Below the pieces are notes generated by a model. It was not told where the DNA came from. It ran no database searches and saw only the letters and a list, made by a program, of their open reading frames with translations. This document shows, piece by piece, positions 2,826 to 59,504 of a DNA stretch of 64,000 nucleotides. How positions within the stretch are numbered: position 1 is the stretch's first letter; every line of letters begins with the position of its first letter. The stretch comes from an uncultured Clostridia bacterium. Its GTDB lineage: Bacteria > Bacillota > Clostridia > Christensenellales > UBA1242. The DNA is taken from the NCBI GenBank assembly GCA_949949035.1, contig CATLHJ010000001.1, positions 6,116 to 70,115 of the forward strand. The letters are read 5' to 3'. A program made the position numbers and the translations under genes.

Positions 2826-3098
2826 TCAGTCTCCGTAAAACGCCTGAACAATGCTTGCTACGACTGTGGCCATGGTCTGTTCGGGTACATTATATTCGAC
2901 CGCGGGCACGGGCTCGGGGGGTGGGCTGGGTAAGTTAGCAATCGCGGTGGCAATCGCTTGTTCGGTTTGGGCGTGCAAAGTCTCAATCTGTTGGTAAGTA
3001 CGTTGTTCAATTTCTTGGGCGGTTTGGTTAGCCTTGGCGATTAAATTATCCGCCTTGGTTTCGGCCTGATTGATTAACTGCAAAGTATCCGCCAACAT
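2826..3098 (-). CDS. small coiled-coil V-ATPase stalk protein (subunit G/H-like), first gene of the operon
   Basis: 90 aa. The helical Q/A/E-rich N-terminus (LINQAETKADNLIAKANQTAQEIEQRTYQQIE) resembles peripheral-stalk G/H subunits. It sits 5 nt upstream of ntpI. Confidence 0.5.
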   Translation of the reverse strand: MLADTLQLINQAETKADNLIAKANQTAQEIEQRTYQQIETLHAQTEQAIATAIANLPSPPPEPVPAVEYNVPEQTMATVVASIVQAFYGD

Positions 3099-3105
3099 CT
3101 ATTTA

Positions 3106-3134
3106 AGGATAGCGTGGGGTACCGCGATTTGCAA
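3106..3134 (-). promoter_or_regulatory. putative sigma-70-type promoter of the V-ATPase operon, leaderless geometry
   Basis: On the minus strand: TTGCAA (3134..3129), 17 nt, TATCCT (3111..3106), 7 nt, ATG at 3098. No SD in between. Confidence 0.45.
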
Positions 3135-3169
3135 GCAAATTTTGCCCGCCGTCCTTATATATATAGTTT

Positions 3170-5659
3170 ATGCCTGACCTTACTGGACTTAATGCGCGGG
3201 AAGTGGACGCTGCCCGTCGGCAGTACGGACGTAATGTTTTAACGCCCCCGAAGTCGCGTAGTTTTTGGACGATTTTACTTGGTAATCTTGGTGATCCGAT
3301 TATGAAAATTCTTATGTTCGTCACCGCGATTAACTTGGCGTTTTTGTTTTATTCGCGCAATTTTTTGGAAACCTTCGGCATCGTGGTGTCCATTGTGATT
3401 GCCGTAACTGTCAGTACGTTAAGCGAACTGGGTAGCGAAAGTGCGTTTAAGAAACTGGAAAAAATGACCGCCACCCTGCAGTCGCGGGTTAAGCGAACTG
3501 GGCAGACGGTATTGGTGCCCGCGGTGGATTTGGTCGTCGGCGATTTAGTGTTACTCGGCAGTGGGGACAAGGTACCGGCCGACGGGGTCATGGTCAGTGG
3601 CGAAATTACCATTGACCAAAGTATCTTAAATGGCGAGAGTGCGGAATGTCACAAGCGGGCGGGTGGTGCTGTTCCCGATCATGCCGACTTTTTGTCGCCC
3701 GTGCAAGTTTTTTCGGGGACCATTGTTACGGGGGGCAATGGCCTGTTCCGCGTCACGGCGGTGGGTGACCAAACCGAATACGGAAAAATTGCCAAAGGTT
3801 TAACCGAAGAGGCCCCGACCAGTCCGTTAAAGGTCAAGTTATCCAAGTTGGCCGGCTTGGTGTCCTTAATCGGTTACCTTGGTGCGTTTATCGCGGCCAT
3901 TACTTATTTAATCAGTGTTGGTCGCGACGGGTTCACTTTTAACGAAATTTTGAACGCGGTAACTTTGGTGGTGTCCGTTATCGTAATGGCGGTGCCCGAA
4001 GGTTTACCCATGATGATTACCGTGGTGTTGTCGTCCAACATGCGAGCAATGATGAAAGATAATCTGTTGGTACGTAAATTAAGCGCCGTGGAAACAGCGG
4101 GTAGCCTTAACATTTTATTTACCGATAAGACGGGGACGATCACGGCGGGGCAGTTATCCGTGTGTGGGGTGTTGTTGCCGAACGGGCAATATGTGACCGA
4201 TCACTTTACCCAGCAGTTGGGTGGTTTCGGGCAACTGTTAGGTACCGCGTTAGTGGTGAACAACGAAGCCGAACACACGGCTCATGGTTTTATTGGGGGC
4301 AATATTACCGATCGGGTACTGGCAGAATTCGGTTACAAGTTACTTGGCGGAGTAGTACCTACGGTAACCAAGGTGAACAGTGTGCCTTTTTCTTCCGCAA
4401 CTAAATACATGGCTACGGAAACCGCGGATGGTTCCTTATATTACAAAGGAGCCACCGAAGTGTTGTTGCCGCGTTGCCAATTAACCCCCGATGAGCGGAT
4501 TAAACTGCAACAGCAAGTGGTGGCCTTGAACGAACAAGCCATTCGCGTAATTTGCGTGACCGAAGGTGACGTATTACTTGGCTTTATCGCCTTGCGCGAC
4601 GCGGTACGGCCGGAAGCCAAAGCCAGTATTGATACTTTGCATACCGCCCAAATGCAAGTGGTCTTGGTAACGGGTGACGCCCGTGAAACGGCGGTGGCAG
4701 TTGCCAAAGAAGTGGGCATTTTGGACACTGACGGCGTGGTGCTAACCAGTGATGAACTTAACCAACTGGACGATAAGGCGTTGGCGGCGGTGTTGCCACG
4801 TTTACGGGTAGTGTCGCGGGCGTACCCGCAAGATAAAAGCCGTCTGGTTAAGGTAGCGCAGTCGCTTAATCTGGTGGTGGGTATGACGGGTGACGGGGTT
4901 AACGATGCTCCTGCCTTGAAACGTGCCGAATTGGGTTTTGCTATGGGCAGTGGTACCGAAGTAGCCAAAGCCGCGGGCGATATTATTATTGTTGACGATA
5001 ATATCAAGTCGATTACCAAAGCAGTTTCTTTTGGGCGTACCTTATTTGAAAGTATCCGTAAATTCTTGGTTTTCAAACTGACGATTAACTTTGTAGCGAT
5101 GGCAATTTGTATTATGGCGCCGTTGTTCGGTATCGCGTCGCCGATTACCGTTATGCAAATGCTATGGATTAACTTGGTGATGGATACTTTGGCGGGGTTG
5201 GCGTTTGGCGGTGAAAAACCGCGTGCCAAGTACCTGCGCCAACCACCCAAGCGGCGGGACGAAAGTTTAATTACGCGGGCGATGTGGGGGCAGATTATTT
5301 GGGGCAGTATCTTTGGCACACTGATTTGTTTGTGGTTCCTGTTATCGCCTTACGTGCAACGCATTGTTGGCGACCAAGCCACTTTCGCGACCGTGTTCTT
5401 TACTTTCTTTATGTTCCTTAATCTTTGTAACGCGTTCAATGCGCGGGCGGACGGGGTTAATATTTTCGCGGGGTTATTCAAAAACAAAGCGTTTATCATT
5501 ATCATGGGGTTAATCGTGGTGGCCCAGTTTGCGATTATCTATTGGGGTGGGGGAGTATTCCGTACCATACCACTGGACTTTATTTATATTGCTTTTGCGG
5601 GGGTACTGGCCCTGTCCATGGTGCCGGCTGAACTATTCCGCAAAGCGGTGTTCAAATAA
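3170..5659 (+). CDS. P-type cation-transporting ATPase, Ca2+ (PMCA/SERCA-like, YloB-type)
   Basis: 829 aa. Motifs present: phosphorylation site LFTDKTGTIT, PEGLP (VPEGLPMMITVVLS), and hinge TGDGVNDAPAL. The N-terminus LNAREVDAARRQYGRN is typical of P2 ATPases. TATATA (3158-3163) ends 6 nt before the ATG. Confidence 0.88.
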   Translation: MPDLTGLNAREVDAARRQYGRNVLTPPKSRSFWTILLGNLGDPIMKILMFVTAINLAFLFYSRNFLETFGIVVSIVIAVTVSTLSELGSESAFKKLEKMTATLQSRVKRTGQTVLVPAVDLVVGDLVLLGSGDKVPADGVMVSGEITIDQSILNGESAECHKRAGGAVPDHADFLSPVQVFSGTIVTGGNGLFRVTAVGDQTEYGKIAKGLTEEAPTSPLKVKLSKLAGLVSLIGYLGAFIAAITYLISVGRDGFTFNEILNAVTLVVSVIVMAVPEGLPMMITVVLSSNMRAMMKDNLLVRKLSAVETAGSLNILFTDKTGTITAGQLSVCGVLLPNGQYVTDHFTQQLGGFGQLLGTALVVNNEAEHTAHGFIGGNITDRVLAEFGYKLLGGVVPTVTKVNSVPFSSATKYMATETADGSLYYKGATEVLLPRCQLTPDERIKLQQQVVALNEQAIRVICVTEGDVLLGFIALRDAVRPEAKASIDTLHTAQMQVVLVTGDARETAVAVAKEVGILDTDGVVLTSDELNQLDDKALAAVLPRLRVVSRAYPQDKSRLVKVAQSLNLVVGMTGDGVNDAPALKRAELGFAMGSGTEVAKAAGDIIIVDDNIKSITKAVSFGRTLFESIRKFLVFKLTINFVAMAICIMAPLFGIASPITVMQMLWINLVMDTLAGLAFGGEKPRAKYLRQPPKRRDESLITRAMWGQIIWGSIFGTLICLWFLLSPYVQRIVGDQATFATVFFTFFMFLNLCNAFNARADGVNIFAGLFKNKAFIIIMGLIVVAQFAIIYWGGGVFRTIPLDFIYIAFAGVLALSMVPAELFRKAVFK

Positions 5660-6362
5660 TTTGGTTTTTGCGAACCAATCGCCAATCGCCAACCGCCAAG
5701 TTGCCCAGTCGTAACTTGCCTTCCGCGACGCGGGTAAGAGTGAGTACGTTCAGGTTTTGGGTGGCAAACATTTTACGGATTTGGCGGTTACGGCCTTCGT
5801 GAATGGTTACTTGAATACGAGTGCGTTCGTGGTTAAGGTAACTAAATTGGGCAGGCGCCGTCCTAACGCCGTCAATGTTGACCCCGCGGGACAGGGTGAC
5901 CAGCTCCTGTTGGGTAACGGGGCGGTCGACGGTCGCCCAATAAACCTTGTCGACATGAGTGGACGGGTGGGTTAACTTTTTAGTTAAAGCACCATCGTTG
6001 GTTAGTAATAACAGTCCCGTGGTATGGTAATCTAACCGCCCCACGGGGTATAAACGCAGTCGGTTAATTAAGTTACCATATTGCTTGGGGTTGTCGCGCA
6101 ACACGTCTAACACCGTGCGCCGGCCTTGCGGATCGGCGGTGGTGGAAACCACGCCGTCGGGTTTGTTTAGTAAAATGTACACTAGGTCGGTTGGTGGGGT
6201 TACCGGACGATCATCCACCATCACGGTAGTGTCGGGGGTAACCGTGGTCGCCAGGTTAGTGATGACTTGGCCGTTGATTTTGACCCGACCGGTCACCACC
6301 AAGTTTTCTACATGACGGCGACTGCCGAGTCCGCATTGGGCAAGATATTTGTTTACTCGCAT
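5652..6362 (-). CDS. rluB: pseudouridine synthase, RsuA/RluB family
   Basis: S4-domain N-terminus MRVNKYLAQCGLGSRR and catalytic GRLDYHTTGLLLLTNDG. I trimmed the track ORF (start 6551) to the internal ATG at 6362, which aligns with the family N-terminus. Confidence 0.85.
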   Translation of the reverse strand: MRVNKYLAQCGLGSRRHVENLVVTGRVKINGQVITNLATTVTPDTTVMVDDRPVTPPTDLVYILLNKPDGVVSTTADPQGRRTVLDVLRDNPKQYGNLINRLRLYPVGRLDYHTTGLLLLTNDGALTKKLTHPSTHVDKVYWATVDRPVTQQELVTLSRGVNIDGVRTAPAQFSYLNHERTRIQVTIHEGRNRQIRKMFATQNLNVLTLTRVAEGKLRLGNLAVGDWRLVRKNQII

Positions 6363-6384
6363 ACGAAAAAAGTATATCATAGAA
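6363..6384. promoter_or_regulatory. 22-bp divergent intergenic region with overlapping opposite-strand -10 boxes (rluB / SurE-like 1)
   Basis: Sequence ACGAAAAAAGTATATCATAGAA. Minus strand: TGaTATACT (6379..6371), then 8 nt to ATG 6362. Plus strand: TATATC (6373-6378), then 6 nt to ATG 6385. No room for leaders or SDs. Confidence 0.5.
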
Positions 6385-7188
6385 ATGATGAATATCCTAA
6401 TTGCTAACGTACGTAATTTGGAAGCCCCCGAAACGCGGGTGTTGGCGGGGGAACTGGCCAAGAAGCACCGCGTGACGGTTTGCTCCATGGATTTGCCCAG
6501 TCGGCAAAAGGGTAACGCTTTTTCGTACAGCGGTTTTCCCATTAAGTTCAAACAGCTTAGTAGTTACCAAATTAACGGGGAAAAAATTCCCGCCTATAAA
6601 TTCCAAGGCACACCCGCGGACATGATGTCGATTATGCTGGGTAACATCATGCGTCACCGTCAACCGCAAATTGTCATCTGCGGGATCAGTAATGGTATTT
6701 CTTTGGGCACCGATGTATTTTGTTCGTCAAACGTAGGAATGGCGATGCAGGCCGCGTTTGCTAACGTACCGTGTATTGCGGTAGGCATGCCGATGCGGGT
6801 CGGGGGACACAGCGAAGCCGAGTTGTTGCCGGTGGCGCAATTTATTGCGAAAAACATTGAGAAACTGGCCAAAATGCAATTACCGACCGATACTTTCTTA
6901 AACATTTCTTTCCCGTTGGTTAAAAAATACGAAGACTACCAAGGGGTGGGTATCTCGTCCATGGATAACTTAACCAAGATGACCCGTTATGTGGAAAAGG
7001 TCGACTGCAAGGGTAACACCTACTACTGGGCGGAAATGGTGACCCGCGAAAGTGCGGAGAACGCACCATTGTCACCGACCGCCGGTATGTCGTATTTCCA
7101 AAAGCATTACATCATTATGTCGCCGTTAACCTATGATTGTACCGATTACACCCGTTTATCCGCGTTACAAAAGGGGGAAAGGCTATGA
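6385..7188 (+). CDS. SurE-like protein, divergent paralog 1 (N-terminal metal-binding motif absent)
   Basis: 267 aa with SurE-family blocks: QGTPADMMSIMLG, ICGISNGISLGTDVFCSSNVGMAMQAA, LNISFP, and a C-terminal SPLTYDCTDY. The N-terminus MMNILIANVRNLEAP lacks the canonical NDDG. Confidence 0.65.
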   Translation: MMNILIANVRNLEAPETRVLAGELAKKHRVTVCSMDLPSRQKGNAFSYSGFPIKFKQLSSYQINGEKIPAYKFQGTPADMMSIMLGNIMRHRQPQIVICGISNGISLGTDVFCSSNVGMAMQAAFANVPCIAVGMPMRVGGHSEAELLPVAQFIAKNIEKLAKMQLPTDTFLNISFPLVKKYEDYQGVGISSMDNLTKMTRYVEKVDCKGNTYYWAEMVTRESAENAPLSPTAGMSYFQKHYIIMSPLTYDCTDYTRLSALQKGERL

Positions 7189-7955: not shown

Positions 7956-8620
7956 GTGAATTTATCAACATTGCGATTGATGGACCTGTGGCCAGTGGCA
8001 AAGGGACGGTCACCAAGGCTTTGTCGGCGCGTTTAGGCATCCCCGCGTTGGATACGGGGGCAATGTATCGGGCGGTAACGGTGGATCTGTTAGACCGTAA
8101 CGTGGATATTCACGACGAAAAAGCGGTCCTGTTCGCGTTAAATAAGACTGATTTACGGGTGTTTATGTCTGACAACAGTATTATGCGTGTGTTCGTGCGT
8201 AACCACGACGTATCGGCCCGCCTGCGCGATAACGCTATCAGTTTGGCGACGCCCACGGTCGCGGCCTACTCGGGCGTGCGCGATTACGTTAACCGCCAAA
8301 TTGCGGTGGTGGCCAGTACGGGAAACTACATTTTGGAAGGGCGGGACATTGGTACCACAGTTTTACCCCACGCCCAGTATAAGTTTTTCCTTACCGCCGA
8401 CTTGGTTGAACGGGCTAAACGCCGGAAGTTAGACTTGGCGCGCAAGGGGGAGGATGTGCCGTTATTGGAAGTGATGGCGCAAGTTAAACAACGTGACGAA
8501 GCCGACGCCAACCGTGTAGTAGCGCCGTTGAAACAGGCCGACGACGCGATTCTGATTGATAACACGGGGTTGACCTTGGAACAAACCATTGACAGTATGT
8601 TAAAATATATTAAACTATAA
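7952..8620 (+). CDS. cmk: cytidylate kinase
   Basis: 222 aa with P-loop IAIDGPVASGKGTV and a family-typical LDTGAMYRA block. ATGA overlap with the upstream gene. Confidence 0.9.
   Translation: MSEFINIAIDGPVASGKGTVTKALSARLGIPALDTGAMYRAVTVDLLDRNVDIHDEKAVLFALNKTDLRVFMSDNSIMRVFVRNHDVSARLRDNAISLATPTVAAYSGVRDYVNRQIAVVASTGNYILEGRDIGTTVLPHAQYKFFLTADLVERAKRRKLDLARKGEDVPLLEVMAQVKQRDEADANRVVAPLKQADDAILIDNTGLTLEQTIDSMLKYIKL
8589..8616 (+). promoter_or_regulatory. putative internal promoter for the asp23-nusB-xseAB-recN unit, embedded in the cmk 3' end
   Basis: TTGACA (8589-8594), 16 nt, TAAACT (8611-8616), 7 nt, ATG 8624. No SD before 8624. Confidence 0.4.
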
Positions 8621-8623
8621 CTA

Positions 8624-8965
8624 ATGGATACAATTGTGCATATTGAAGACGGAAAATATTTAGGACAAACTAAATTTGCCCCCAGTTTGTTAGAAGAATC
8701 TTTGGCTCTGGGCGTGCGCGAAGTGCGAGGCGTGGCCAACCTTGATCACAAAAAAGGTATTCAAATTCACCGTTGTAAAGATAGCAAGGACTTGATTATC
8801 GATATTGGTTTGGTGGTCTTGAATGGGTACGCGGTGCCGGATGTAGCCTACCGAGTGCAAGAAGCCGTGATCAACAGTGCCGCCCAACTGACGACTAACA
8901 AAATTGACCGCGTTAATGTTTACGTGCGGGGGGCAAAATATGGGGCAAGCGTTAAGCAGAAGTGA
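8624..8965 (+). CDS. Asp23/Gls24 family (alkaline shock) protein
   Basis: 113 aa. The sequence has the Asp23 pattern (LALGVREVRGVANL ... VPDVAYRVQEAVINSA ... VNVYVRG). It sits directly upstream of nusB, as yqhY does in Bacillus. Confidence 0.75.
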   Translation: MDTIVHIEDGKYLGQTKFAPSLLEESLALGVREVRGVANLDHKKGIQIHRCKDSKDLIIDIGLVVLNGYAVPDVAYRVQEAVINSAAQLTTNKIDRVNVYVRGAKYGASVKQK

Positions 8966-12082: not shown

Positions 12083-13096
12083 TTACTTGTGTTTGCGCCG
12101 TTTAGGCTTTTTTTGGTTGCAGTACTTACGGTGGCTGGGGACTAACCACAGCAGAACTAAAACACAAACCACCACGATGATGGCGCAAATGACAATAAAC
12201 GACCAAAAACCACCCATACGCGCCAAGGGTAGATTATCTAAATTCATGCCGTAAATACCGGCAATCAAGGTTGGGATGGCCAAGATGATGGTGACAATGG
12301 TTAAAAAACGCATGCGCTCGGCTAAACGATTATTAACGATATTGGCGTAAGTGTCCATGGTTTCGTTCATCAATTCGCGCTGCAGAGTACAGGTAGCAAA
12401 CGCTTGTTTAATTTCCACTTGAATATTTTCCAAGGTTTCAATGTCGTCTTCGGTTAGATTCGTGCGTTGCGCCAACAACTTGTCCACGACTAAAATGTTT
12501 TGCCGCAAAGACGAGGCAAAATAAATCAATGCATTTTTCAGTTTCATAAATTCAACCAAGATGTTGTCCGTATTGCTGTTGCGTAACAGTTTACTTTCAA
12601 TGTTGGTACTGGCCTTGTCAATCGCCCGCAAATAAATCTCGTAAAGACTGTGGAAGGCTAATAAAAATTGGTACAAAATTTTCGGGCTGTCCAACAAAAC
12701 GTTTGAGCGTAGCGTGCCGTGCTTAATATCGTTAAATTTACTGCTGTCATTTAAGCAGACAGAAACGGTTAAATTTCCCTTTTGAATAATGGATAAAGGC
12801 ATGGTGGTGTAGGGAGCGTCGCTATCTTCGGTTTGGCTCTGGGTAACGGGTATGTCAAAAACAATTAAGCGGTAGCCGGTATCGTCGTCCAAATCTAAAC
12901 GCGGGCCTTCTTCGTCGTCCAACGCCGAACGCACAAAGTCTTCGGGAATACTTAATTCGTCAATGACCCGTTTGACTTCAATTTCGTTGGGGTTGGTCAG
13001 TTGCACCCAAACGCGTTGGTCAGTTGGCAAATGCAACAGACTTAAACTGTCATCTTTGACGTACTTACCATCACGTTGCAACAATACGTTGGTCAT
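12083..13096 (-). CDS. corA: CorA-family magnesium/cobalt transporter
   Basis: 337 aa from ATG 13096, with the YGMN motif (GIYGMNLDNLP) between two C-terminal TM helices. The track's TTG start at 13132 coincides with the -35 hexamer, so I used the ATG. Confidence 0.85.
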   Translation of the reverse strand: MTNVLLQRDGKYVKDDSLSLLHLPTDQRVWVQLTNPNEIEVKRVIDELSIPEDFVRSALDDEEGPRLDLDDDTGYRLIVFDIPVTQSQTEDSDAPYTTMPLSIIQKGNLTVSVCLNDSSKFNDIKHGTLRSNVLLDSPKILYQFLLAFHSLYEIYLRAIDKASTNIESKLLRNSNTDNILVEFMKLKNALIYFASSLRQNILVVDKLLAQRTNLTEDDIETLENIQVEIKQAFATCTLQRELMNETMDTYANIVNNRLAERMRFLTIVTIILAIPTLIAGIYGMNLDNLPLARMGGFWSFIVICAIIVVVCVLVLLWLVPSHRKYCNQKKPKRRKHK

Positions 13097-13102
13097 ACCT
13101 TG

Positions 13103-13132
13103 ATGGTACACCCGTTTAGTAAATAAAGTCAA
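13103..13132 (-). promoter_or_regulatory. putative corA promoter, leaderless geometry
   Basis: Minus strand: TTGACT (13132..13127), 18 nt, TACCAT (13108..13103), 6 nt, ATG 13096. Confidence 0.45.
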
Positions 13133-17653: not shown

Positions 17654-19597
17654 ATGGAATTTAAGTTAGTAGCACCTTACCAACCTACGGGCGACCAACC
17701 GGCCGCGATTGAACGCCTGACCCAAGGCATTAAAGACGGGCGTCGCCACCAAGTATTGTTGGGCGTTACGGGCAGTGGTAAAACCTTTACCATGGCGAAC
17801 GTGATTAAAAACGTGGGGCGTCCAACCTTGGTAATTGCCCACAACAAAACGTTGGCGGCGCAATTGTGTAACGAGTTTCGGGAATTTTTCCCCGAAAATC
17901 GTGTAGAATACTTTGTCAGTTATTACGATTATTACCAACCCGAAGCCTACTTGCCGGCGACCGATACCTACATCGAAAAAGACATGGCAATTAACGACGA
18001 AATTGATAAATTACGTCACTCGGCGACTTCGTCGTTGTGCGAGCGTAATGACACCATTATTGTGGCGTCGGTATCCTGCATCTATGGTTTGGGTGAACCC
18101 AAAGAGTACGCCAGTATGGCAATTTCTTTACGCCCGGGCATGGCACTTAAACGGCGCGATTTGGTAACCCGTTTGGTAGACAGTCAATACAAACGGGCGG
18201 AAGTCGACTTTGTGCGGGGCAGTTTTCGCGTTAACGGGGACGTGGTCGATATTATTCCGTCTTACGCGTCTAACGTGGCGGTGCGGGTGCAGTTTTGGGG
18301 CGACGAAGTAGAAGGCATTTTTGAAATCGACGCTTTAACGGGGGCTAAATTGTCCTCCTTGGCCCACATCGCCATCTTTCCGGCGTCACACTTCGCGGTG
18401 GGTTCGGCACGCTTACAGGAAGCCATTGCCAAAATTCGGGCGGATTTGGCGGTACAAAAAAAATTCTTTGACGACCACAACATGATTATCGAAAGCCATC
18501 GTATTACTCAACGCACCAATTACGATTTAGAAATGTTGGCGGAACTGGGCTTTGTCAAGGGCATCGAAAATTATTCGCGTTACTTTGATGGTCGGCAGCC
18601 GGGCGAGCCACCTTATACTTTAATGTCGTATTTTCCGAAGGACTACTTAGTTTTTATTGACGAATCCCACATTACGGTACCGCAGATTCGCGGTATGTAT
18701 AATGGTGACCGCGCACGCAAAAAAGTGTTGGTTGATTTTGGTTTCCGTTTGCCGTCAGCCTACGATAACCGCCCCTTGAACTTCGCCGAATTTAACCAAC
18801 GGTTGGGGCAGTGCATTTACGTGTCGGCCACGCCCGAACAATATGAATTGGAAAAAGCGGGTGGGCAGGTTGTGGAACAAATTATCCGCCCTACCGGATT
18901 GCTGGACCCCGAGGTCATCGTGCGGGGCAAAGACCACCAAGTACCCGATGTGCTTAACGAAATTCGGCAAGTGGTTGCGGGGAAGGGGAAAATCTTGATT
19001 ACCACGCTAACCAAAAAAATGGCGGAAGATTTGACGGCGTTTCTCACCGAAAACAACGTGCGGGTGCGCTACTTGCACAGCGAAATTGATACTTTGGAAC
19101 GCACCGAAATTTTGACCGCTTTTCGCCAAGACGTGTTTGACGTCATCGTCGGAATTAACTTACTGCGCGAAGGTTTGGATTTGCCCGAAGTGGAATTGGT
19201 GGCAATTTTGGATGCGGATAAGGAAGGCTTGTTCCGTTCGACTCGTTCGTTGATCCAAACTATTGGGCGGGCTGCGCGTAACGCCAAAGCCCGAGTAATT
19301 TTGTACGCCAACACCATCACGCCCAGTATGCGGGCGGCGATGGACGAAACCGCGCGTCGGCGTCAGATCCAATTGCAGTACAATCAAGAACACCACATTA
19401 CGCCACGTACAGTGTACAGTGCGATTAAGAACTCGTTGTACATTACGCAAAAAGCCAAACCTGACACTAAAGATGCCGACTTGTCGGTGGCGGAATTGAC
19501 CGAATTGATGAACGCCGCCAGTCAACAGTTGAATTTTGAATTGGCCATCCAATATCGGGAACGAATCAACAAAAAAAATAGTAGACAAAAACGCTAA
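17654..19597 (+). CDS. uvrB: excinuclease ABC subunit B
   Basis: 647 aa with Walker A GVTGSGKTFTMA, helicase motifs (FIDESHITVPQ, QTIGRAARN) and a C-terminal UVR domain (QLNFELAIQYRERI). Confidence 0.95.
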   Translation: MEFKLVAPYQPTGDQPAAIERLTQGIKDGRRHQVLLGVTGSGKTFTMANVIKNVGRPTLVIAHNKTLAAQLCNEFREFFPENRVEYFVSYYDYYQPEAYLPATDTYIEKDMAINDEIDKLRHSATSSLCERNDTIIVASVSCIYGLGEPKEYASMAISLRPGMALKRRDLVTRLVDSQYKRAEVDFVRGSFRVNGDVVDIIPSYASNVAVRVQFWGDEVEGIFEIDALTGAKLSSLAHIAIFPASHFAVGSARLQEAIAKIRADLAVQKKFFDDHNMIIESHRITQRTNYDLEMLAELGFVKGIENYSRYFDGRQPGEPPYTLMSYFPKDYLVFIDESHITVPQIRGMYNGDRARKKVLVDFGFRLPSAYDNRPLNFAEFNQRLGQCIYVSATPEQYELEKAGGQVVEQIIRPTGLLDPEVIVRGKDHQVPDVLNEIRQVVAGKGKILITTLTKKMAEDLTAFLTENNVRVRYLHSEIDTLERTEILTAFRQDVFDVIVGINLLREGLDLPEVELVAILDADKEGLFRSTRSLIQTIGRAARNAKARVILYANTITPSMRAAMDETARRRQIQLQYNQEHHITPRTVYSAIKNSLYITQKAKPDTKDADLSVAELTELMNAASQQLNFELAIQYRERINKKNSRQKR

Positions 19598-19618
19598 AGA
19601 ACATATATATTATGTATG

Positions 19619-21282: not shown

Positions 21283-21292
21283 AAAGTTTATT

Positions 21293-43785: not shown

Positions 43786-43791
43786 CGGTTT

Positions 43792-43820: not shown

Positions 43821-43827
43821 CTATCTT

Positions 43828-43856
43828 TTGCCGGTTTAGTGGTGGTATGTTATACT
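43828..43856 (+). promoter_or_regulatory. putative addBA promoter with extended -10, leaderless geometry
   Basis: TTGCCG (43828-43833), 17 nt counted to TATACT, TGtTATACT (43848-43856), 6 nt, GTG 43863. Confidence 0.5.
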
Positions 43857-43862
43857 GGGACA

Positions 43863-46397: not shown

Positions 46398-49254
46398 ACA
46401 ACCAACTGCCGCCCAAAGTGCGGCGATTAACGCGGACGACCAAAAAATCGCCATTTCGGCCAGTGCCGGCAGTGGTAAAACCACAACAATGATTGAACGC
46501 ATCGCCCGTATTTTGCAGATGAAAGACGAACACGGACAACCGCGCACTACCATTGACCAGTTACTGGTGTTAACTTTTACCGAAGAGTCCGCCAAGGATA
46601 TGCGAAAGAAATTAAAAAAGCAACTGGGCGACCAATTATCGCCGGTGGCATTGCAAGCGGCAACGATTGGCACCTTTCACAGTTTTTGTGCTAATATTGT
46701 ACGGGCTTGGTTTACGGTAGCGGGGGTTAACCCCAGTTTTACGGTCATGGACGAAATGGCCAGTAACCAATTAAAAGCCCAAATTTTTGAGAAAGTTGTC
46801 TTGGATAATTACGGGGCCGCCACCGCGGCGATTGATTGGTTTGCCGCCACCCGCACCTTGCAGGGGTTACAGGACGTAATTTGCCAAATTAACGAATTTT
46901 TGAATACGCGGGCGGATGCTACGGCGTGGTTAAAAGATACGGCCTTGCGCTGCTACGAGCCGGATTTAGACCGCAACCCCGCGGTGCAAGCCTTGATTGA
47001 CCATTACCACCAACTGACCACCCGTTACCGGTCGGCCATCATTGACTTGGCTCATCCATCGCCCGAAGTTGATTTAGTGTTGGCGGCCTGCGAGCAGGTT
47101 TTATCGGCCAAGACTTACGTCGCTTTACACCGGTTGACCGGTTTGGCGTTACCCAAATTAAAGAAGGTAAGCGAGTGGTTAGACGACGATTACGCCCAGT
47201 TTAAGACGTTACGCAGTGGTTTCAGCGATGATGTGCTGAAAGCGATTGCCCAACAGTTTACCGCTACCACCAATCAAATTCAAGCCGCTTTGGTGGCCGA
47301 CCGACGGATCGTCGAACAACTGTTGTTTTTGGCGCAACAATTTGATGTGGCGTACAGTGCCAAGAAGGCCGAATTTAAGCAGTTAGACTTTGCTGATTTA
47401 GAAAAATACGCGTTAAAAGTTTTGGCGAATCCCGACGCGGTGGCGGGGATTCGCGGTCAGTTCAAATACATTTTTGTGGACGAAGGGCAGGATACCAATC
47501 CGGTACAATTCAAAATTATTGATTTGTTGCGGGGGGACGATAAGTTCTTTTACATCGTTGGTGACGTCAAGCAAAGCATTTATGGTTTTCGCGATTGTGA
47601 ACCGGAATTGTTCGCCAAGATGACCACGGAAGCGTCCATCAAGGCCTTGCACTTTAACCAAAATTTCCGCAGTAACGACCAAATTTTACGCTTTGTTAAT
47701 GACGTATTTACGCCGTTAATTCCTAATTACCAAAGTGAACACGCGTTCGTATTGGCGGAACAACGGGCGCATTTATCCACCGACGCCAGTGCGGTAACCA
47801 TCGAATTGGCACCAGATTTGAACGCCCAAATGGAATTGGTTTACCAACAGATTATTAACGCCCACCGTCCGTGGGGGGACATCGCGATTTTGTCGGAAAC
47901 CACACGCCATTTTACGGCGTTGCAAAAGTACTTGGCGGAACGGGGCGTCCCCAGTGTTATTGACCGCGCCAGTAATGCGGCCGAAGAACCCGCAGTGGTC
48001 TTATTAAATAATTTTTTGTTGGCGGCGATGAACCCCAGTAATGAGTTGCCTTATTATTTGACCCTGCAATACTTGTTCCATTGTAGTAATGACGACTTGG
48101 CGTTAATTCGGTTAGGTAAAAAAACAGTGCCAGCCATCGATGCCAAGTTGGCCGAATACCGAACTTGGGGGCGTACTTTGTCGACCTACGAAGTGATGAC
48201 GATGGCCGCGACCGAATTTAATTTATTGAATATTCCTGCGGTAACTGCTTTCTTATCCGCTATTCGGGGTGTTAGTGATTTTGATACGGTTGCCCGCTAT
48301 TTGTACTTGGTGGAACACCAGTTGGTTACCATTAACCTAAACGTTGGGGCGAACGTCACCGACGCAGTTAAAATTATGACCATTCATCACGCCAAAGGAT
48401 TAGAGTTCCCGATGGTTATCTTGTTCAACATGGGAGCATTATGGTCGCAACACCACGACGATACTAAAATTGCGTTAGACAAAAATTTAGGCTTGTGCGT
48501 GGTTTCGGTCGATACCGCCACGTACACCCAAAAAAGCCAAGTGCTACGTCTCGGTATTAAAAAACAACAACAAGCCATACAACTGACGGAAAAACAACGG
48601 TTGTTATACGTCGCATTGACCCGTCCCAAGGAATACCTGTACATTGTGGGTAGTTGGCAACCGAAAGTCTTCCGCTTACAACCAAATTGTATGTTGGACC
48701 TGATTAACCCGACCAACGTGGTGGTGCGGGACGACGTAACGCCATCGCCGGTTAAACCAACCACTGTCCAAACCGTTACTACGGAAAAAATTAAATTGTC
48801 ACCCGTTAAGCCTAGTATGGTTTTGGCTAAACAAAGCGTAACCGCATTGGCCACTAATGCCGAACCATTTGCCGATACCGTGGTGCCAGTTAAAATGGCT
48901 GTGCCGGCAGCAACAACGGGAGGTAAAGAATTTGGTACCGCGTTCCACAAGCAGGTGCAATACGGGGAACTGCCAGCGGCGGTGGCGGAGTTGGTGGCGG
49001 GGTATACCGTCTACCGCGAAATGCCGTTTCTGTACCGCCAAGACCAAACCATCGTGCAGGGGATTATGGACTTGGTAGCGGTTAAAGACCACGACGCCAT
49101 CATTGTCGATTACAAAACTACGCGGTTACCCGTTGACGCGTTGGTCACTAAGTACCGCGCGCAATTACAACTGTACGCCGCGGCGTTACCGCAATACCAA
49201 GTTAAAATGTACCTTTATTCTACTGTACACCAACGCTTAATTGTCGTATCATAG
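46390..49254 (+). CDS. addA: ATP-dependent helicase/nuclease subunit AddA
   Basis: 954 aa from ATG 46390; SD GGAGG ends 6 nt upstream. It has the UvrD-type Walker A ISASAGSGKTTT and the motifs YIFVDEGQDTNP and TIHHAKGLEF. A C-terminal nuclease is present (IMDLVAV ... IIVDYKT). Confidence 0.9.
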   Translation: MLKQPTAAQSAAINADDQKIAISASAGSGKTTTMIERIARILQMKDEHGQPRTTIDQLLVLTFTEESAKDMRKKLKKQLGDQLSPVALQAATIGTFHSFCANIVRAWFTVAGVNPSFTVMDEMASNQLKAQIFEKVVLDNYGAATAAIDWFAATRTLQGLQDVICQINEFLNTRADATAWLKDTALRCYEPDLDRNPAVQALIDHYHQLTTRYRSAIIDLAHPSPEVDLVLAACEQVLSAKTYVALHRLTGLALPKLKKVSEWLDDDYAQFKTLRSGFSDDVLKAIAQQFTATTNQIQAALVADRRIVEQLLFLAQQFDVAYSAKKAEFKQLDFADLEKYALKVLANPDAVAGIRGQFKYIFVDEGQDTNPVQFKIIDLLRGDDKFFYIVGDVKQSIYGFRDCEPELFAKMTTEASIKALHFNQNFRSNDQILRFVNDVFTPLIPNYQSEHAFVLAEQRAHLSTDASAVTIELAPDLNAQMELVYQQIINAHRPWGDIAILSETTRHFTALQKYLAERGVPSVIDRASNAAEEPAVVLLNNFLLAAMNPSNELPYYLTLQYLFHCSNDDLALIRLGKKTVPAIDAKLAEYRTWGRTLSTYEVMTMAATEFNLLNIPAVTAFLSAIRGVSDFDTVARYLYLVEHQLVTINLNVGANVTDAVKIMTIHHAKGLEFPMVILFNMGALWSQHHDDTKIALDKNLGLCVVSVDTATYTQKSQVLRLGIKKQQQAIQLTEKQRLLYVALTRPKEYLYIVGSWQPKVFRLQPNCMLDLINPTNVVVRDDVTPSPVKPTTVQTVTTEKIKLSPVKPSMVLAKQSVTALATNAEPFADTVVPVKMAVPAATTGGKEFGTAFHKQVQYGELPAAVAELVAGYTVYREMPFLYRQDQTIVQGIMDLVAVKDHDAIIVDYKTTRLPVDALVTKYRAQLQLYAAALPQYQVKMYLYSTVHQRLIVVS

Positions 49255-49257
49255 AGT

Positions 49258-49713
49258 ATGGCGGCTAAAAAATTTCGGATGTCAAACAAAGCCATTGTGC
49301 TGATAAAATTGATTTCGGCACTGGGTTTGTTCTTTTCGTGTTGCTTATTCTTTTTTTTGAATTTGGGTATTTTTAAGCGTGATCTAGGTTTTGATCCGGA
49401 TTATCCGCTAGGGTCGGCCGCTAACCCGTGGTACAACCTAGCCTTTTTGATTGTGTTTTTATTGGCGTTATGTTTTATTGTTTATTACATTACTAATTTG
49501 GTAATTCGTTTTGAAACCAAGCAGTTGTGGAAAGCCGACCGCTTGTTTATTGTGTACCAGATTGTCTTTACCGCTTTGTTAATTATTACCATTTGGCGTT
49601 GGTTCTTTATCAGTATTTCTAATGCGATGGTACCCAGTGTCATTATGATTTTGGCGGGCTTTATCAATTTAATTACGCCGCGGATTGTGGATAACAATAA
49701 TCGTGATTTTTAA
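49258..49713 (+). CDS. hypothetical four-TM membrane protein
   Basis: 151 aa with four hydrophobic helices. It starts 3 nt after the addA stop. No recognisable family. Confidence 0.45.
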   Translation: MAAKKFRMSNKAIVLIKLISALGLFFSCCLFFFLNLGIFKRDLGFDPDYPLGSAANPWYNLAFLIVFLLALCFIVYYITNLVIRFETKQLWKADRLFIVYQIVFTALLIITIWRWFFISISNAMVPSVIMILAGFINLITPRIVDNNNRDF

Positions 49714-52099: not shown

Positions 52100-52128
52100 T
52101 TGCAATTTAGCAAAAATAATTATATACT
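52100..52128 (+). promoter_or_regulatory. putative lysK promoter, leaderless geometry
   Basis: TTGCAA (52100-52105), 17 nt, TATACT (52123-52128), 6 nt, ATG 52135. No SD and no space for a T-box leader. Confidence 0.5.
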
Positions 52129-52134
52129 GGGCTT

Positions 52135-53703
52135 ATGCATTGGAGTTTTGAATTAGCCCACGAGATCTTGCGCCGTTATCCTGACCGTGAAGAATATGTC
52201 GTGGCCAGTGGTATCTCGCCGTCAGGTAGCGTACATATCGGTAATTACCGTGAATTTGTCACCCAGTATTACGTAGCGAAAGCACTGAAGAGTCTGGGTA
52301 AAAAGGTTCGCGAAATTTTTTCGTGGGATGAATTTGACCGTTTTCGCAAGGTGCCGAAAAATTTCCCCGCCGACTATGCCCAATACGTCGGTAAACCATA
52401 CGTTGATATTCCGTCACCGTATAGCCAAGGCGAGAGCAGCGCCAAGTACTTCGAACGCGAATTTGAAGGCGCATTACAAAAACTGGGGATGAACGAAATC
52501 CCCGTGCAAATGATTTACCAAGCCGATCAATACCGCAGTGGTCGCTATGGCCAGCAAATTGCGTTGGCCATCAAAAAGCGTAAACAGATTTACGACATCA
52601 TTATGTCGTTTAAGACCCAAGATGGGGACGAGGGGGCGCGCGAAAATTATTACCCAGTGAATATTTACTGTCCTGTTTGCGGTAAAGACACCACCACTGT
52701 GGTCGCATTTGACGAAAAAACTGACGTCATCAGTTATCGTTGTCAATGCGGGCACGAACACAGTGTGGACGTTAAGACGGCCAGCAATATTAAATTGGTG
52801 TGGAAAGTGGATTGGCCGATGCGTTGGCAAGCCGAAAACGTGTGCTTTGAGGCGGCGGGAATTGACCACCACAGTGAAGGAGGCAGTTTTGATGTTTGTT
52901 CCCGTATTGCTCGTGAAATCTTCGGTATTGAACCACCCGTATCGACTTGTTACGCGTGGGTGGGCATTCGTGGTATTGGTAATATGCACAGCAGTACCGG
53001 CATTAACTTGACCCCTAACCAATTATTGAAGGTCTACGAACCCGAAATTCTGCGCTACTTGTACGCGAAGTACCCCGTAGGTGACGCGTTTGATTTTGGT
53101 TTTGATGATACGATTATTCGCCACTATGCCGAATTTGACCGTAACTTGGCACGTTATTTGGCCAAGGATCCAACCTTGGACGAATACGACCGCGTGGTTT
53201 ACGATTTGTGTTTAATGCCACAAAGTCAGGGTGAACGGGTTAGTTTCGGGACTTTGGCGACCGTTGCACCGTTGGCGGGTTTTAGCCGAGAATTGACCCA
53301 AAGAATGTTGGCACGGGCGAACGTAACGGCGTTAGGTAACTTCGACGAGCGTTTGGCCAAAGTTCAGTTTTGGTTGGAAAATTATCAACCCGACCGTATT
53401 TACCAGTTATTGCCGTGCTTTAATGTGACCTACTACCAAACTTTGACCACCGAACAAAAGGATGTAGTGACGCGCTTGGCCGATTTCTTGGCCACTCCGC
53501 GTGATGAAAAGGCTATCCAAGAATTTTTGTACCAAATTATTAACGACCCGAACCTGACCAAAAAAGAGAACCAAAAGCGACAACAAACGTATTTTAAGAT
53601 TTTTTATAACTTGCTGTTCGGTCGTGATGATGGACCGCGTTTATACCTGTATTTGGCGGTGGCTGACCCCAAAAGTTACGTTAAACTCTTGTCAGAAAAA
53701 TAA
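52135..53703 (+). CDS. lysK: lysyl-tRNA synthetase, class I
   Basis: 522 aa with a class I HIGH-type motif (SGSVHIGNYREF) and a KMSKS-like loop (GIGNMHSSTG). A zinc-type Cys cluster is present (CPVCGKD ... CQCGH). The architecture is unlike class II LysS. Confidence 0.85.
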   Translation: MHWSFELAHEILRRYPDREEYVVASGISPSGSVHIGNYREFVTQYYVAKALKSLGKKVREIFSWDEFDRFRKVPKNFPADYAQYVGKPYVDIPSPYSQGESSAKYFEREFEGALQKLGMNEIPVQMIYQADQYRSGRYGQQIALAIKKRKQIYDIIMSFKTQDGDEGARENYYPVNIYCPVCGKDTTTVVAFDEKTDVISYRCQCGHEHSVDVKTASNIKLVWKVDWPMRWQAENVCFEAAGIDHHSEGGSFDVCSRIAREIFGIEPPVSTCYAWVGIRGIGNMHSSTGINLTPNQLLKVYEPEILRYLYAKYPVGDAFDFGFDDTIIRHYAEFDRNLARYLAKDPTLDEYDRVVYDLCLMPQSQGERVSFGTLATVAPLAGFSRELTQRMLARANVTALGNFDERLAKVQFWLENYQPDRIYQLLPCFNVTYYQTLTTEQKDVVTRLADFLATPRDEKAIQEFLYQIINDPNLTKKENQKRQQTYFKIFYNLLFGRDDGPRLYLYLAVADPKSYVKLLSEK

Positions 53704-53717
53704 TTTGGGCTTATAAT
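53690..53717 (+). promoter_or_regulatory. putative promoter overlapping the lysK 3' end, leaderless geometry
   Basis: TTGTCA (53690-53695), 16 nt, TATAAT (53712-53717), 6 nt, ATG 53724. Confidence 0.5.
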
Positions 53718-53723
53718 AAAGCA

Positions 53724-54269
53724 ATGAACAATAAAGAATTAAGGAAGTACGATTTATTGGTGCAAATTGGCAACCAAGGCGGGGCCAACGCGTTGCGTGA
53801 ATTGGCGGGACTGGACTTTGACGTCGCTGTCGAGATGTGGGAATACAAAATGACCAAAGATATTAACACCTTTAACGGGGAAGACATCTTTGGTATTTTG
53901 GCGGGAGTTTCCGAAACTAAATTGCGTTCGGCAGTATTGGACAATACTGCGTTATTAAAATTGATTTACGGGGCGAGTGCGGAAAGTTGTACGGGGGCTA
54001 ATTTGACCTTCTTGGCCGGTTTAATTGTGAACTCAAAAATTACCGAAGCGGAAGAAATCTTAAAGATGGTTAAGAACAACGGTTCTGGTGATTTTAACGA
54101 ACGCATGAACGCGGTGGTCGACGCCGTGTTCACTTTGTCCATGGGTAAAACCGGCACCAAAAAAGCCACCTTAAACCACAAGCAAACCATTTTGTTATTT
54201 GATTTCGTTTCCAAAATGAAAGCGGGTACCACTAAGAATGTTTTGACCCAACGCTTAAAAGAATTATAA
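53724..54269 (+). CDS. hypothetical helical protein (181 aa)
   Basis: Intact ORF with no TM and no recognisable motif. Its stop codon directly abuts the mnmG stop on the opposite strand. Confidence 0.45.
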   Translation: MNNKELRKYDLLVQIGNQGGANALRELAGLDFDVAVEMWEYKMTKDINTFNGEDIFGILAGVSETKLRSAVLDNTALLKLIYGASAESCTGANLTFLAGLIVNSKITEAEEILKMVKNNGSGDFNERMNAVVDAVFTLSMGKTGTKKATLNHKQTILLFDFVSKMKAGTTKNVLTQRLKEL

Positions 54270-57328: not shown

Positions 57329-57579
57329 TATTTCTCCACTAATGCGTTCAATTCTAGACAATCAAACGGTACCTTTTCCAAAAAGTCACGGGGCTTCAAT
57401 TTCAAAATATTGAACGCCAAAAAATTGTCAATTTGGGACTGGGTCACAATTGGGGTGGGAATTTTTAAGGCTGTCGCCATCGCTACCAAACCGTGGTAAA
57501 AGTCGGTCGGGTCAATCGCCACTACCGCGCTTTGTTTAACCTTATGGTCAATGATGATCTTGGCCCAAACTTTGGTCAT
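57328..57579 (-). CDS. hypothetical 83-aa protein, first gene of the mnmE-mnmG unit
   Basis: MTKVWAKIIIDHKVKQSAVVAIDPTDFYHGLVAMATALKIPTPIVTQSQIDNFLAFNILKLKPRDFLEKVPFDCLELNALVEK. The start lies 32 nt inside the fba 3' end. Confidence 0.5.
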   Translation of the reverse strand: MTKVWAKIIIDHKVKQSAVVAIDPTDFYHGLVAMATALKIPTPIVTQSQIDNFLAFNILKLKPRDFLEKVPFDCLELNALVEK

Positions 57580-58489
57580 TACGCAGAGTATAATACTTTA
57601 ATTTGCGTTCGGCAACTGCTGTGACCGTTTTCATGGCTTCTTTTAAGTAAGAACGTGGGTCGAAAACTGCGGGCTGGTCGTGGAAATATTGGCGGATAGT
57701 AGCCGTAATCGCCAAACGCAGATCGCTGTCGATATTGATTTTGCGAACGCCGTCGTCAATGGCACGGGCCAGTTCGCGTTCGTGAATGCCCACCGCGTCC
57801 TTGATTTGTCCGCCAAACTGGTTAATGGTGGTCACGTATTCGGGGATTACCGATGAAGCGCCGTGTAACACTAACGGCGTATCGGGGATGGCGGCGTGGA
57901 TTTGTTTTAGAATATCGTAACGCAGAGCAGGGGTCGACCCGACCGCGTACTTGTACGCCCCGTGTGCCGTACCAATCGACACGGCCAAGGAATCAACACC
58001 AGTTTTTTGGACAAACTCGCGGGCTTTGGCGGGGTCGGTGTACTTACTGTGCGCAACGTTGACGGCGTCTTCAATACCACAAATTTCGCCCAGTTCGCCT
58101 TCCACCCAAACGTCATGAGCGTGGGCGTAGTCAACCACTTTTTTGGTTAAAGCGACGTTTTCGGCAAAGGGCAGGTGACTGCCGTCAATCATTACCGAGT
58201 CAAAACCGTGATCAATACAGTCTTTGCATAGTTCAAAACTGTCACCGTGATCTAGATGTAAAACCAAGGTTGTTTGGGTATTGGCTTGTGCGGTATTAAA
58301 TAAGGCTCGTAAATAATCGGAACCTGTGTAACGTCGTGCCCCCGCGGATACTTGTAAAATGGCGGGGCATTGTAAATTATTTAAGGCGGCGGTAATGCCT
58401 TTCATTACTTCCATATTGGAAATATTAAACGCGACAATAGCACAGTTTTTTTGCTGTGCCCAATTAAATAAAGTTTGCATTTTGTTCAT
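57548..58489 (-). CDS. fba: fructose-1,6-bisphosphate aldolase, class II
   Basis: 313 aa with the family blocks AIVAFNISNMEV, LHLDHGDSFE, MIDGSHLPFAENV, SIGTAHGAYK and LVLHGASS. Confidence 0.92.
   Translation of the reverse strand: MNKMQTLFNWAQQKNCAIVAFNISNMEVMKGITAALNNLQCPAILQVSAGARRYTGSDYLRALFNTAQANTQTTLVLHLDHGDSFELCKDCIDHGFDSVMIDGSHLPFAENVALTKKVVDYAHAHDVWVEGELGEICGIEDAVNVAHSKYTDPAKAREFVQKTGVDSLAVSIGTAHGAYKYAVGSTPALRYDILKQIHAAIPDTPLVLHGASSVIPEYVTTINQFGGQIKDAVGIHERELARAIDDGVRKINIDSDLRLAITATIRQYFHDQPAVFDPRSYLKEAMKTVTAVAERKLKYYTLRNDQSLGQDHH
57587..57615 (-). promoter_or_regulatory. putative promoter inside the fba 3' coding region driving the 83-aa ORF, mnmE and mnmG
   Basis: Minus strand: TTGCCG (57615..57610), 17 nt, TATACT (57592..57587), 7 nt, ATG 57579. 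Confidence 0.5.
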
Positions 58490-58495
58490 AATTTC

Positions 58496-58524
58496 ATTAT
58501 AGACGATGGTGCGCGGTGTGTAAA
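58496..58524 (-). promoter_or_regulatory. putative fba promoter, leaderless geometry
   Basis: Minus strand: TTTACA (58524..58519), 17 nt, TATAAT (58501..58496), 6 nt, ATG 58489. Confidence 0.55.
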
Positions 58525-58530
58525 AACAAT

Positions 58531-58559
58531 TTGCGTTAAAATGGCTTAAAAGTTATCAT
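58531..58559 (+). promoter_or_regulatory. putative GT2-gap promoter, leaderless geometry
   Basis: TTGCGT (58531-58536), 17 nt, TATCAT (58554-58559), 6 nt, ATG 58566. Confidence 0.5.
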
Positions 58560-58565
58560 ATAAGT

Positions 58566-59504
58566 ATGGGGAAAATTTCATTGGTCTTGCCGGTTTATAA
58601 CGAACAGATTATTCTACGTGATGTATTAAATAAGTACTTGGCCGATTTAGAAAATATTCGTACGCAAATGGACTACGCTTGGGAAGTAGTAGCGGTCGAT
58701 GATTGTAGTAGCGACGAATCAAAATTGATTTTAATGGATTTCGCCAAAAAGTACCGTAACTTTAAGGTTGTTTCGTTGGCGAATCGTTCGGGCAAGCACG
58801 CGGCGGTCAGCGCGGGTTTTGCCGTTAGTACGGGGTCAATCGTCTTGACCGCAGAAATTGATTTGCAAAACCCGCTGGGTTTGTTTACCGAAATGTTGAA
58901 GGAACATTTGACCAGTGGAGTACCGATTATTTACGGGTACCAAGAATTTGTTGGTTGGAAAAAGCGTAAGGCTTTTATGACTGACCGTTTGACCCGCTTT
59001 GCCTGCCGTTTGTTCTTGATTGATGGATATTTCACCGGTATTGTCAACGCCGAATTATACGCGGCTGACGTGGTAGATGTGTTACGCCAAAATCCGGTAA
59101 AGAACAAATATATGCGTACCATGAATAATTGGGTCGGTTGGGAAAGCCGTGAATTTTGGTACGCTCGTGAATATACCGATGAAGAAGCCAAGGTTAAGCA
59201 GGAACAATTAAGGGCGCGCAGTCGCCATTATCAAGGCTATAAAAAACGCGGCCACGAAAATTCGGCCACTAAATGGTGGGCGATATTGTGTCTTTGCTTG
59301 GCGGCGGTGGCGTTTGGCACCGCAATTTATTTGGTGCCCCGTGTTGATGCCGTGTTAACGGGGTTGATGTTTACTTTGGGCTTTGCTATGTTGGCGCTGA
59401 TGTTGATGTTTTGGTTCCGGTCGCTGTTGTTGACGCGCATTGGCAAATTGAATTTCCGTGATGGTGAAATAATTTACGAAATCAAGTCAATACTAAATAA
59501 ATAA
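58566..59504 (+). CDS. family 2 glycosyltransferase (polyprenyl-phosphate glycosyltransferase-like) with C-terminal TM helices
   Basis: 312 aa. The GT-A N-terminus reads [11 protein letters not shown] with a [11 protein letters not shown] acidic motif. Two C-terminal TM helices are present ([40 protein letters not shown]). Confidence 0.8.

Follow-up and report, generated by a model that had tools for sequence, protein, structure and literature searches.

Sigma-A-type promoters abutting start codons suggest leaderless mRNAs for most operons in an uncultured Christensenellales-related clade

Among the gene-start models of GeneMarkS-2, group C is the one in which a Pribnow box stands 6-8 nt away from the start codon, and its genomes are predicted to have 25-50% or more of their operons leaderless (Lomsadze et al. 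2018, PMC6028130). The group takes in 90% of Actinobacteria, 97% of Deinococcus-Thermus and 36 of 1064 Firmicutes (3.4%; PMC6028130), while 717 of 4930 human-gut species models, given without taxonomy, also belong to it (PMC8153819). Here we describe a 64-kb stretch of contig CATLHJ010000001.1 from an uncultured Clostridia bacterium (the window; 46-50% GC, about 52 genes), in which promoters of the ordinary sigma-A/sigma-70 type abut the start codons of most genes that lead a transcription unit. With a probability that we put at roughly 80%, these promoters would give leaderless mRNAs for most operons.

The window and about 150 kb of loci from its relatives resemble group C in having a promoter motif near operon-first starts and Shine-Dalgarno (SD) sequences at the other genes, but group C genomes using genetic code 11 are almost all high-GC and this clade has 35-47% GC. 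The motif also differs from that of Actinobacteria, which is a bare TANNNT, whereas here it is a full TTGnnn-17-TATAAT with a TGn extension. A TAtAAT-type signal with a TG peak has been described in low-GC Firmicutes by Zheng et al. (2011), where, however, leaderless genes average 4.2% (maximum 16.6%) and occur mainly in Lactobacillales and Mycoplasma (PMC3160421), against about 37-40% of genes here, in a Clostridia clade. Mapped Clostridia belong to the same class and share the sigma-A promoters and the SD-led internal genes, but they have 2-4% leaderless transcripts and a peak of 5' untranslated region (5'-UTR) length near 32 nt (C. phytofermentans, PMC5171806; solventogenic clostridia, PMC9045289), and the nearest outgroup loci in our comparison are likewise SD-led. 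In Mycobacterium and Deinococcus, whose leaderless transcriptomes were charted by differential RNA sequencing, many units start at the A or G of an ATG or GTG with no SD, as far as the papers that cite them tell (PMC6028130, PMC9045289); on the same accounts those are experimentally shown, while ours is a reading of sequence, and both the phylum and the cell biology differ from those of spore-forming Clostridia. Group B of the same scheme, with AT-rich ribosome-binding sites of the Bacteroidetes type, was rejected as a description, since the internal genes have GGAGG SDs and the hexamer with its -35 is found at lead genes only. The original prediction had held that leaderless genes are not established for spore-forming Firmicutes; the 2-4% in mapped Clostridia bears this out, although the 36 group C genomes mean that the type is already known in the phylum. 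Literature searches combining Christensenella or Christensenellales, Clostridiales or spore-formers with pervasive leaderless transcription or transcription starts returned no relevant report, the identities of those 36 Firmicutes lying outside the comparison. Judging from these comparisons, the layout is of a type already known, and the lineage is an unexpected one for it, uncultured and sharply bounded.

Promoters were scored with a log-odds -35/-10 weight matrix built from textbook E. coli hexamer frequencies, with spacers of 16-18 nt allowed. All 17 sites quoted in the original prediction are in the sequence exactly as quoted, and 16 of them combine -35-like and -10-like hexamers at a spacer of 16-18 nt with a gap of 5-8 nt to the start codon; the site at the P-type ATPase gene is ambiguous and has no usable -35. 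After refinement of the starts, 21 genes of the window (20 ATG, 1 GTG) combine weak pairing to the anti-SD with a sigma-A-type promoter in which 4-10 nt (mode 6) separate the -10 from the start codon, and we refer to such genes as leaderless-type. They account for about 21 of 31 transcription units (~68%), or up to 25 of 31 if weak cases are counted. Six sites are additions to those first listed: surE1, acrB, abcF, abcB1 and g49258, with orf78 and the amidase gene as weaker cases (Table 1). The top-scoring promoter in the 0-45 nt before the start has a gap of 4-8 nt in 20 of 27 lead genes and in 2-3 of 20 operon-internal genes. As had been claimed, no SD lies between promoter and start; pairing is weaker than -4 kcal/mol in 19 of the 21 genes, corA and addB reaching -6.3. 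The SDs reported at the operon-internal ntpK, addA, recN and gap are present, and so is the minority of lead genes with a leader and an SD (25111, 28476, 28809, 35730 and 61846). In these five and in the operon-internal genes, GGAGG-type SDs form duplexes of -8 to -14 kcal/mol, and there is no promoter nearby.

The wider survey took in the window and the clade loci around SecA, with called gene starts classified by fixed thresholds. The two classes are disjoint: one holds genes with a close promoter and a weak SD, the other genes whose SD is -6.5 kcal/mol or stronger and that lack a close promoter, and the overlap is 0. Leaderless-type genes in the clade comprise 53 lead and 7 internal genes, SD-led genes 20 lead and 31 internal. 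The predicted peak in the distance from -10 to start, with weak SDs at operon-first genes, is seen at 6 nt in both the window and the clade loci; although gaps of 4-10 nt were searched evenly, the 60 clade cases are distributed as 3 at 4 nt, 13 at 5, 23 at 6, 10 at 7, 10 at 8 and 1 at 10. The TG extension before the -10 is over-represented, 31 of the 60 cases having the T and 30 the G, and as it is absent from the scoring matrix this argues for real promoters of the Gram-positive type. In sigma-70-type initiation the modal start is the seventh base after the -10, within a range of about 6-9, and a pyrimidine at -1 followed by a purine at +1 is preferred. A gap of 6 nt makes the A of ATG that seventh base, and the pyrimidine found before the start codon of 42 of 60 leaderless-type genes (27 of 51 SD-led genes) agrees with the preference.

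From this geometry we infer where transcription starts and how translation would begin. With a TTGnnn -35 and a TATAAT-like -10 set 16-18 nt apart, frequently with a TGn, the usual start of RNA polymerase would fall on the A of the start codon (G in one gene), 5-9 nt and most often 7 nt past the -10. The transcript would thus begin at the AUG or 1-3 nt off it, without an SD, and ribosomes and initiator tRNA would bind directly to its 5'-terminal AUG. Later genes of an operon and the minority of leads would rely on GGAGG-type SDs or on coupling of stop and start codons, and the use of SDs at internal genes implies that the anti-SD system is intact. The leaderless reading put forward originally is in this way supported at the level of sequence, by the full promoters, the gap peak at 6, the confinement of weak SDs to these genes, the internal SDs and the conservation of the layout.

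The nearest genome, MGBC126721 (CAPRTS01), is a metagenome-assembled genome (MAG) from mouse gut, labelled uncultured Eubacteriales; it encodes an MnmG with 92% identity and keeps the gene order of the locus, with nucleotide identities of 79-88%. Ranked by identity, the SecA homologues form tiers of 76-92% and 64-71%, some of the latter labelled Christensenellaceae bacterium, and then, after a gap, of 57% or less, one of which is labelled Christensenellales bacterium. All tier members of at least 64% come from metagenomes or MAGs, and a second SecA search with a 67% relative as query brought up neither a cultured nor a named species within it. Leaderless-type genes, SD-led genes and genes of neither class number 20, 17 and 14 in the window (SecA 100%); 6, 5 and 5 in L055 (84%); 5, 6 and 5 in L058 (79%); 8, 4 and 7 in L056 (71%); 6, 10 and 5 in L057 (67%); 7, 5 and 9 in L059 (67%); and 8, 4 and 7 in L062 (64%). 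Below the gap they number 1, 3 and 7 in L063 (57%); 0, 11 and 5 in L060 (55%); 1, 10 and 9 in L064 (55%); and 2, 12 and 5 in L061 (54%). Overall, 60 of 163 genes are leaderless-type in the loci at 64-100% SecA identity as against 4 of 66 at 54-57% (Fisher P = 6e-7). The layout is kept in the related loci L001, L002, L005, L055 and L058, with the gap drifting between 5 and 9 nt, and is also found at non-syntenic genes of L056, L057, L059 and L062 (valS, glyS, metS-like, trpS/tyrS, pgk, frr, obg and rubrerythrin). At secA itself a TATAAT stands 5-8 nt before the ATG in five relatives, while the 54-55% homologues have SDs instead. As in-clade GC ranges from 0.35 to 0.47, base composition is not the explanation. 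A metagenome scan with FBA returned distant loci only (at most 56% identity), of the Bacteroidales type and from low-GC Clostridia; in contrast to the clade, the Clostridia loci have a TATAAT followed by a 23-nt leader with the SD AAGGAAGG. To go by the identity tiers, the source organism is a member of a discrete, uncultured, Christensenellales-related clade represented by metagenomes alone, and the layout is a heritable trait of that clade. Some clade sequences (L002, CAZXAV010000099.1, and P0005) are deposited in MAGs named Prevotella sp., which looks like binning contamination.

Two divergent pairs, rluB/surE1 and amidase/abcB1, have their start codons 22 and 21 nt apart (6360-6387 and 29478-29504), leaving no intergenic room for leaders. 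The opposite-strand -10 boxes overlap (AGTATATCA and TATATTA), and the -35 of either gene is located within its partner's coding sequence, an arrangement in which the paired promoters should compete for RNA polymerase. The spacing of amidase/abcB1 is kept in L055 (16137-16159). The original prediction had leaderless leads follow divergent or convergent neighbours, which does not hold for asp23, nfeD, g24549, recR, g53724 and orf83, as these follow a gene on the same strand. For all six, the promoter is within or up against the 3' end of that gene. The promoters are embedded in the 3' ends of cmk (asp23), uvrB (nfeD), lysK (g53724) and fba (orf83, overlapping fba by 32 nt), and that of recR comes after spoIIE; in these five cases there is no space for a terminator, and on read-through transcripts the five genes would be without an SD.

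Could AT-rich hexamers have been paired by chance with starts in AT-rich intergenic DNA? Loose promoter matches are indeed frequent by chance, and an independent consensus scan counted 32 promoter-like sites against 26.6 +/- 5.1 in shuffles, which is no excess; it is therefore the placement of the sites and not their number that constitutes evidence. The two strands together have 34 strong promoter-like hits; 13 of them are placed 4-10 nt before the start of an open reading frame (ORF) of at least 80 aa, where about 0.1 would be expected (Poisson P ~1e-23). Among all 1533 ATGs of the window, 1.4% have a leaderless-type context, and these are mostly gene starts. The same thresholds identified none among 45 annotated starts of E. 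coli K-12, and loci from other phyla gave 0-2 leaderless-type ORFs each, in addition to the few in the neighbouring Firmicutes, and the layout persists across 64-92% SecA identity. Chance was rejected on placement, controls and conservation together, and we regard it as hardly credible. It is also very improbable, if a little less so, that the start codons are misassigned, the true ones lying up- or downstream and the promoters preceding ordinary leaders. Public gene callers do differ, about 13 of 22 close full-length SecA homologues being called with 5-36 additional residues, and the original prediction had picked an internal start for 6 of its 17 genes. In 14 genes, however, no other start codon lies between the preceding in-frame stop and the ATG, so that no upstream extension is possible, and ATG3170 of the P-type ATPase is firm given an adjoining upstream in-frame stop and a Pfam N-terminal domain. 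The proposed starts match Pfam domains, which begin at residues 1-8 in lysK, fba, GT2, secA, rluB and recR, and the N-termini of homologues, the MGLF of SecA being found in 28 of 28 compared (54-92% identity). Over the first 29 codons of 17 orthologue pairs, differences at codon positions 1, 2 and 3 number 103, 48 and 254, a coding-type pattern from codon 2 on, while 1-2 nt indels between orthologues in the stretch from -10 to ATG (for example in lysK, fba and g53724) break the frame and rule out coding there. The SecA extensions (homologues P0001-P0025; six verified by sequence, the others inferred from length) are nothing but the -10 box read as codons (VYNV = GTATATAATGTG) and show no conservation, which points to systematic misannotation of starts in the clade. 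With these observations combined, the start codons appear secure. Four annotated starts were replaced during refinement: acrB 21209 by 21293, surE1 TTG 6349 by 6385, mnmE TTG 57361 by ~57316 and addA GTG 46384 by 46390.

The alternative that deserves most attention, though still an unlikely one, is that the promoters are genuine but the main transcripts start further upstream, and that the hexamer near the start codon is not a -10 but a non-SD translation signal, of the unstructured or S1 type as in Bacteroidetes. The P-type ATPase gene, with an AT-rich run and no -35, would fit this, as would the lack of excess over shuffles, and read-through is likely in the same-strand cases, since a terminator would not fit there. 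Such a signal would not account for the -35 at 16-18 nt and the TGn extension that accompany the hexamer, and a general non-SD signal would be expected before all genes, whereas the motif precedes lead genes only and internal genes have GGAGG. In addition, alternative promoters 11-60 nt upstream score low, and the divergent pairs offer no room for a leader. Several observations nevertheless count against the leaderless interpretation. The weight matrix is based on textbook frequencies for E. coli, and the thresholds are our own. Some -10 boxes are weak (TATCCT, TACCAT and TATGGT), gaps of 4 or 10 nt suit exact initiation at the A less well, the pairing at corA and addB is modestly SD-like and about a third of the in-clade genes belong to neither class. 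The 5' coding ends of leaderless-type and SD-led genes did not differ in structure and A content (Mann-Whitney P = 0.91).

Table 1. Promoter-start arrangements in the window. Coordinates are window positions; the promoter column gives -35, spacer, -10, gap (nt) and start codon. Sites marked "added" were not in the original prediction.
Gene	Positions	Strand	Promoter and start	Score	SD dG (kcal/mol)	Remarks
ntp (V-ATPase) operon lead gene, 90 aa	3096..3134	-	TTGCAA-17-TATCCT-7-ATG3098	8.1	+1.9	first start codon of ORF
P-type ATPase	3133..3172	+	TATATA-6 or TATAGT-2 (sole -10 options), ATG3170			AT-rich TATATATATAG just 5'; no SD; no usable -35; ambiguous
rluB	6360..6400	-	TTAGGA-18-TGaTATACT-8-ATG6362			extended -10; Pfam S4 domain from residue 1
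surE1	6352..6387	+	TTTACT-17-TATCAT-4, or TATATC-6, to ATG6385	9.3		added
asp23	8589..8626	+	TTGACA-16-TAAACT-7-ATG8624	10.7
corA	13094..13132	-	TTGACT-18-TACCAT-6-ATG13096	8.8
surface protein, 1362 aa	13157..13196	+	TTGCCA-17-TATAAT-8-ATG13194	13.9
nfeD	19582..19621	+	TAGACA-18-TATATT-7-ATG19619 (or 4 nt to ATG19616)	9.2
orf78 (78-aa ORF)	20987..21217	-	TATACT-5-ATG			poor -35; weaker case; added
AcrB-family transporter (acrB)	21255..21295	+	TTGACA-16-CATAAT-10-ATG21293	11.5		gap of 10 implying a leader of ~3 nt; added
g24549 (162 aa)	24512..24551	+	TTGCCA-17-TATGGT-8-ATG24549			L055: TTGTCA-17-TAAGTT-6
abcF	26225..26259	+	TTGACA-16-TATAAC-4, or TGgTACAAT-9, to ATG26257			L055: TGgTATAAT-7; L058: TATAAT-8; added
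ABC exporter abcB1	29465..29504	+	TTGCCA-17-TATATT-8-ATG29502	11.9		kept in L055 and L058; added
amidase (divergent to abcB1)	ATG 29480	-	TAATAT-8			weaker case; added
secA	35618..35655	-	TTGTTC-17-TATAAT-6-ATG35620
recR	38973..39009	+	TTTGCG-17-TGgTATAGT-5-ATG39007	8.1
U32 peptidase	43783..43821	-	GTGACG-18-TATACT-6-ATG43785	8.8
addB	43828..43865	+	TTGCCG-17-TGtTATACT-6-GTG43863	10.6		start is ATG in L058
g49258 (151 aa, after addA)	49224..49260	+	TGTACA-17-TATCAT-5-ATG49258	7.9		kept in L001; added
lysK (class I LysRS)	52100..52137	+	TTGCAA-17-TATACT-6-ATG52135			Pfam 1-358 = profile 1-356; gap in L001 with 1-nt indel
g53724 (181 aa)	53689..53726	+	TTGTCA-17-TATAAT-6-ATG53724	13.6		gap of 8 in L002
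orf83 (83-aa ORF) heading mnmE-mnmG	57577..57615	-	TTGCCG-17-TATACT-7-ATG57579	10.6		kept in L001 and L005
fba	58487..58524	-	TTTACA-17-TATAAT-6-ATG58489	13.1
GT2 glycosyltransferase (then gap, SD-bearing)	58531..58568	+	TTGCGT-17-TATCAT-6-ATG58566	8.2		kept in L001 and L005
leadered lead gene (contrast)	25034..25113	+	TTGACT-17-TAACAT, ~40-nt leader with SD GGGGAG, ATG25111		-11.7
leadered lead gene (contrast)	35677..35732	+	TTGACT-18-TATAAT, 23 nt with SD AAGGAG, ATG35730		-8.2
MFS transporter (contrast)	61844..61893	-	TTGACC-17-TACACT, 18 nt with AAAGGA, ATG61846		-10.2
aminoacyl-tRNA synthetase genes	window 52135; L056 6317-8833, 16349-18043, 19392-20744; L059 18966-19919; L062 6164-8464

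Pfam matches in the window include V-ATPase genes, a P-type ATPase, rluB, two surE, cmk, asp23, nusB, xseA/B, recN, corA, uvrB, nfeD/band-7, an AcrB-type transporter, abcF, an amidase, two ABC exporters, secA, spoIIE, recR, comEC, holA, a U32 peptidase, addBA, a gerA operon, class I lysK, mnmEG, fba, a GT2 transferase, gap, an MFS transporter and ftsH. The endospore-former gene content noted at the outset is borne out by SpoIIE and GerA. The GerA-family protein (50967-52088, minus strand; 373 aa) is N-terminally short, its Pfam match beginning at profile position 114 of 466, and its gene lies 46 nt from the divergent lysK; the weight-matrix scan of the window found no sigma-A-type promoter at the gerA start. 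Upstream of spoIIE there is a weak CAAAAT-6 only, overlapped by a conserved TTTGTCA(A/T)A motif (36665-36689, and upstream of spoIIE in L055 and L058), which we take to resemble a Spo0A box. A GC-rich hairpin, aaaagcggacgtggattagcgtccgtttt, at 20975-21000 between the convergent band-7 gene and orf78 is probably a bidirectional terminator.

Most Firmicutes aminoacyl-tRNA synthetase genes have T-box leaders. In the clade these genes (lysK, valS, metS-like, glyS, trpS/tyrS and leuS) have short upstream gaps and mostly leaderless-type promoters. At the Rfam gathering score there was no T-box, riboswitch or other cis-regulatory RNA in ~195 kb of clade DNA, a result that leaves the leadered genes unexplained and the leaderless ones uncontradicted. 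We somewhat favour the view that this clade of gut and rumen spore-forming Clostridia (about 66 protein clusters at SecA identities of at least 64%, the next relatives being at 57%) came to transcribe most of its units as leaderless mRNAs. The trait would then have arisen independently within Bacillota, where the sister lineages are SD-led, and 5'-UTR regulation such as the T-boxes of the aminoacyl-tRNA synthetase genes would apparently have been lost.

Strong dependence on the SD is a textbook feature of the Firmicutes, and the sharp boundary of the clade would make it a natural comparison for what lets a ribosome and a genome tolerate or prefer leaderless initiation. For annotation, it would seem that standard gene callers mis-set starts in the clade, as with SecA, which is extended in more than half of the close homologues. 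If the lead genes are leaderless, they would be unable to use 5'-UTR riboswitches, T-boxes or small-RNA sites for their regulation, and the design of first-gene expression in these gut organisms should not depend on a ribosome-binding site.

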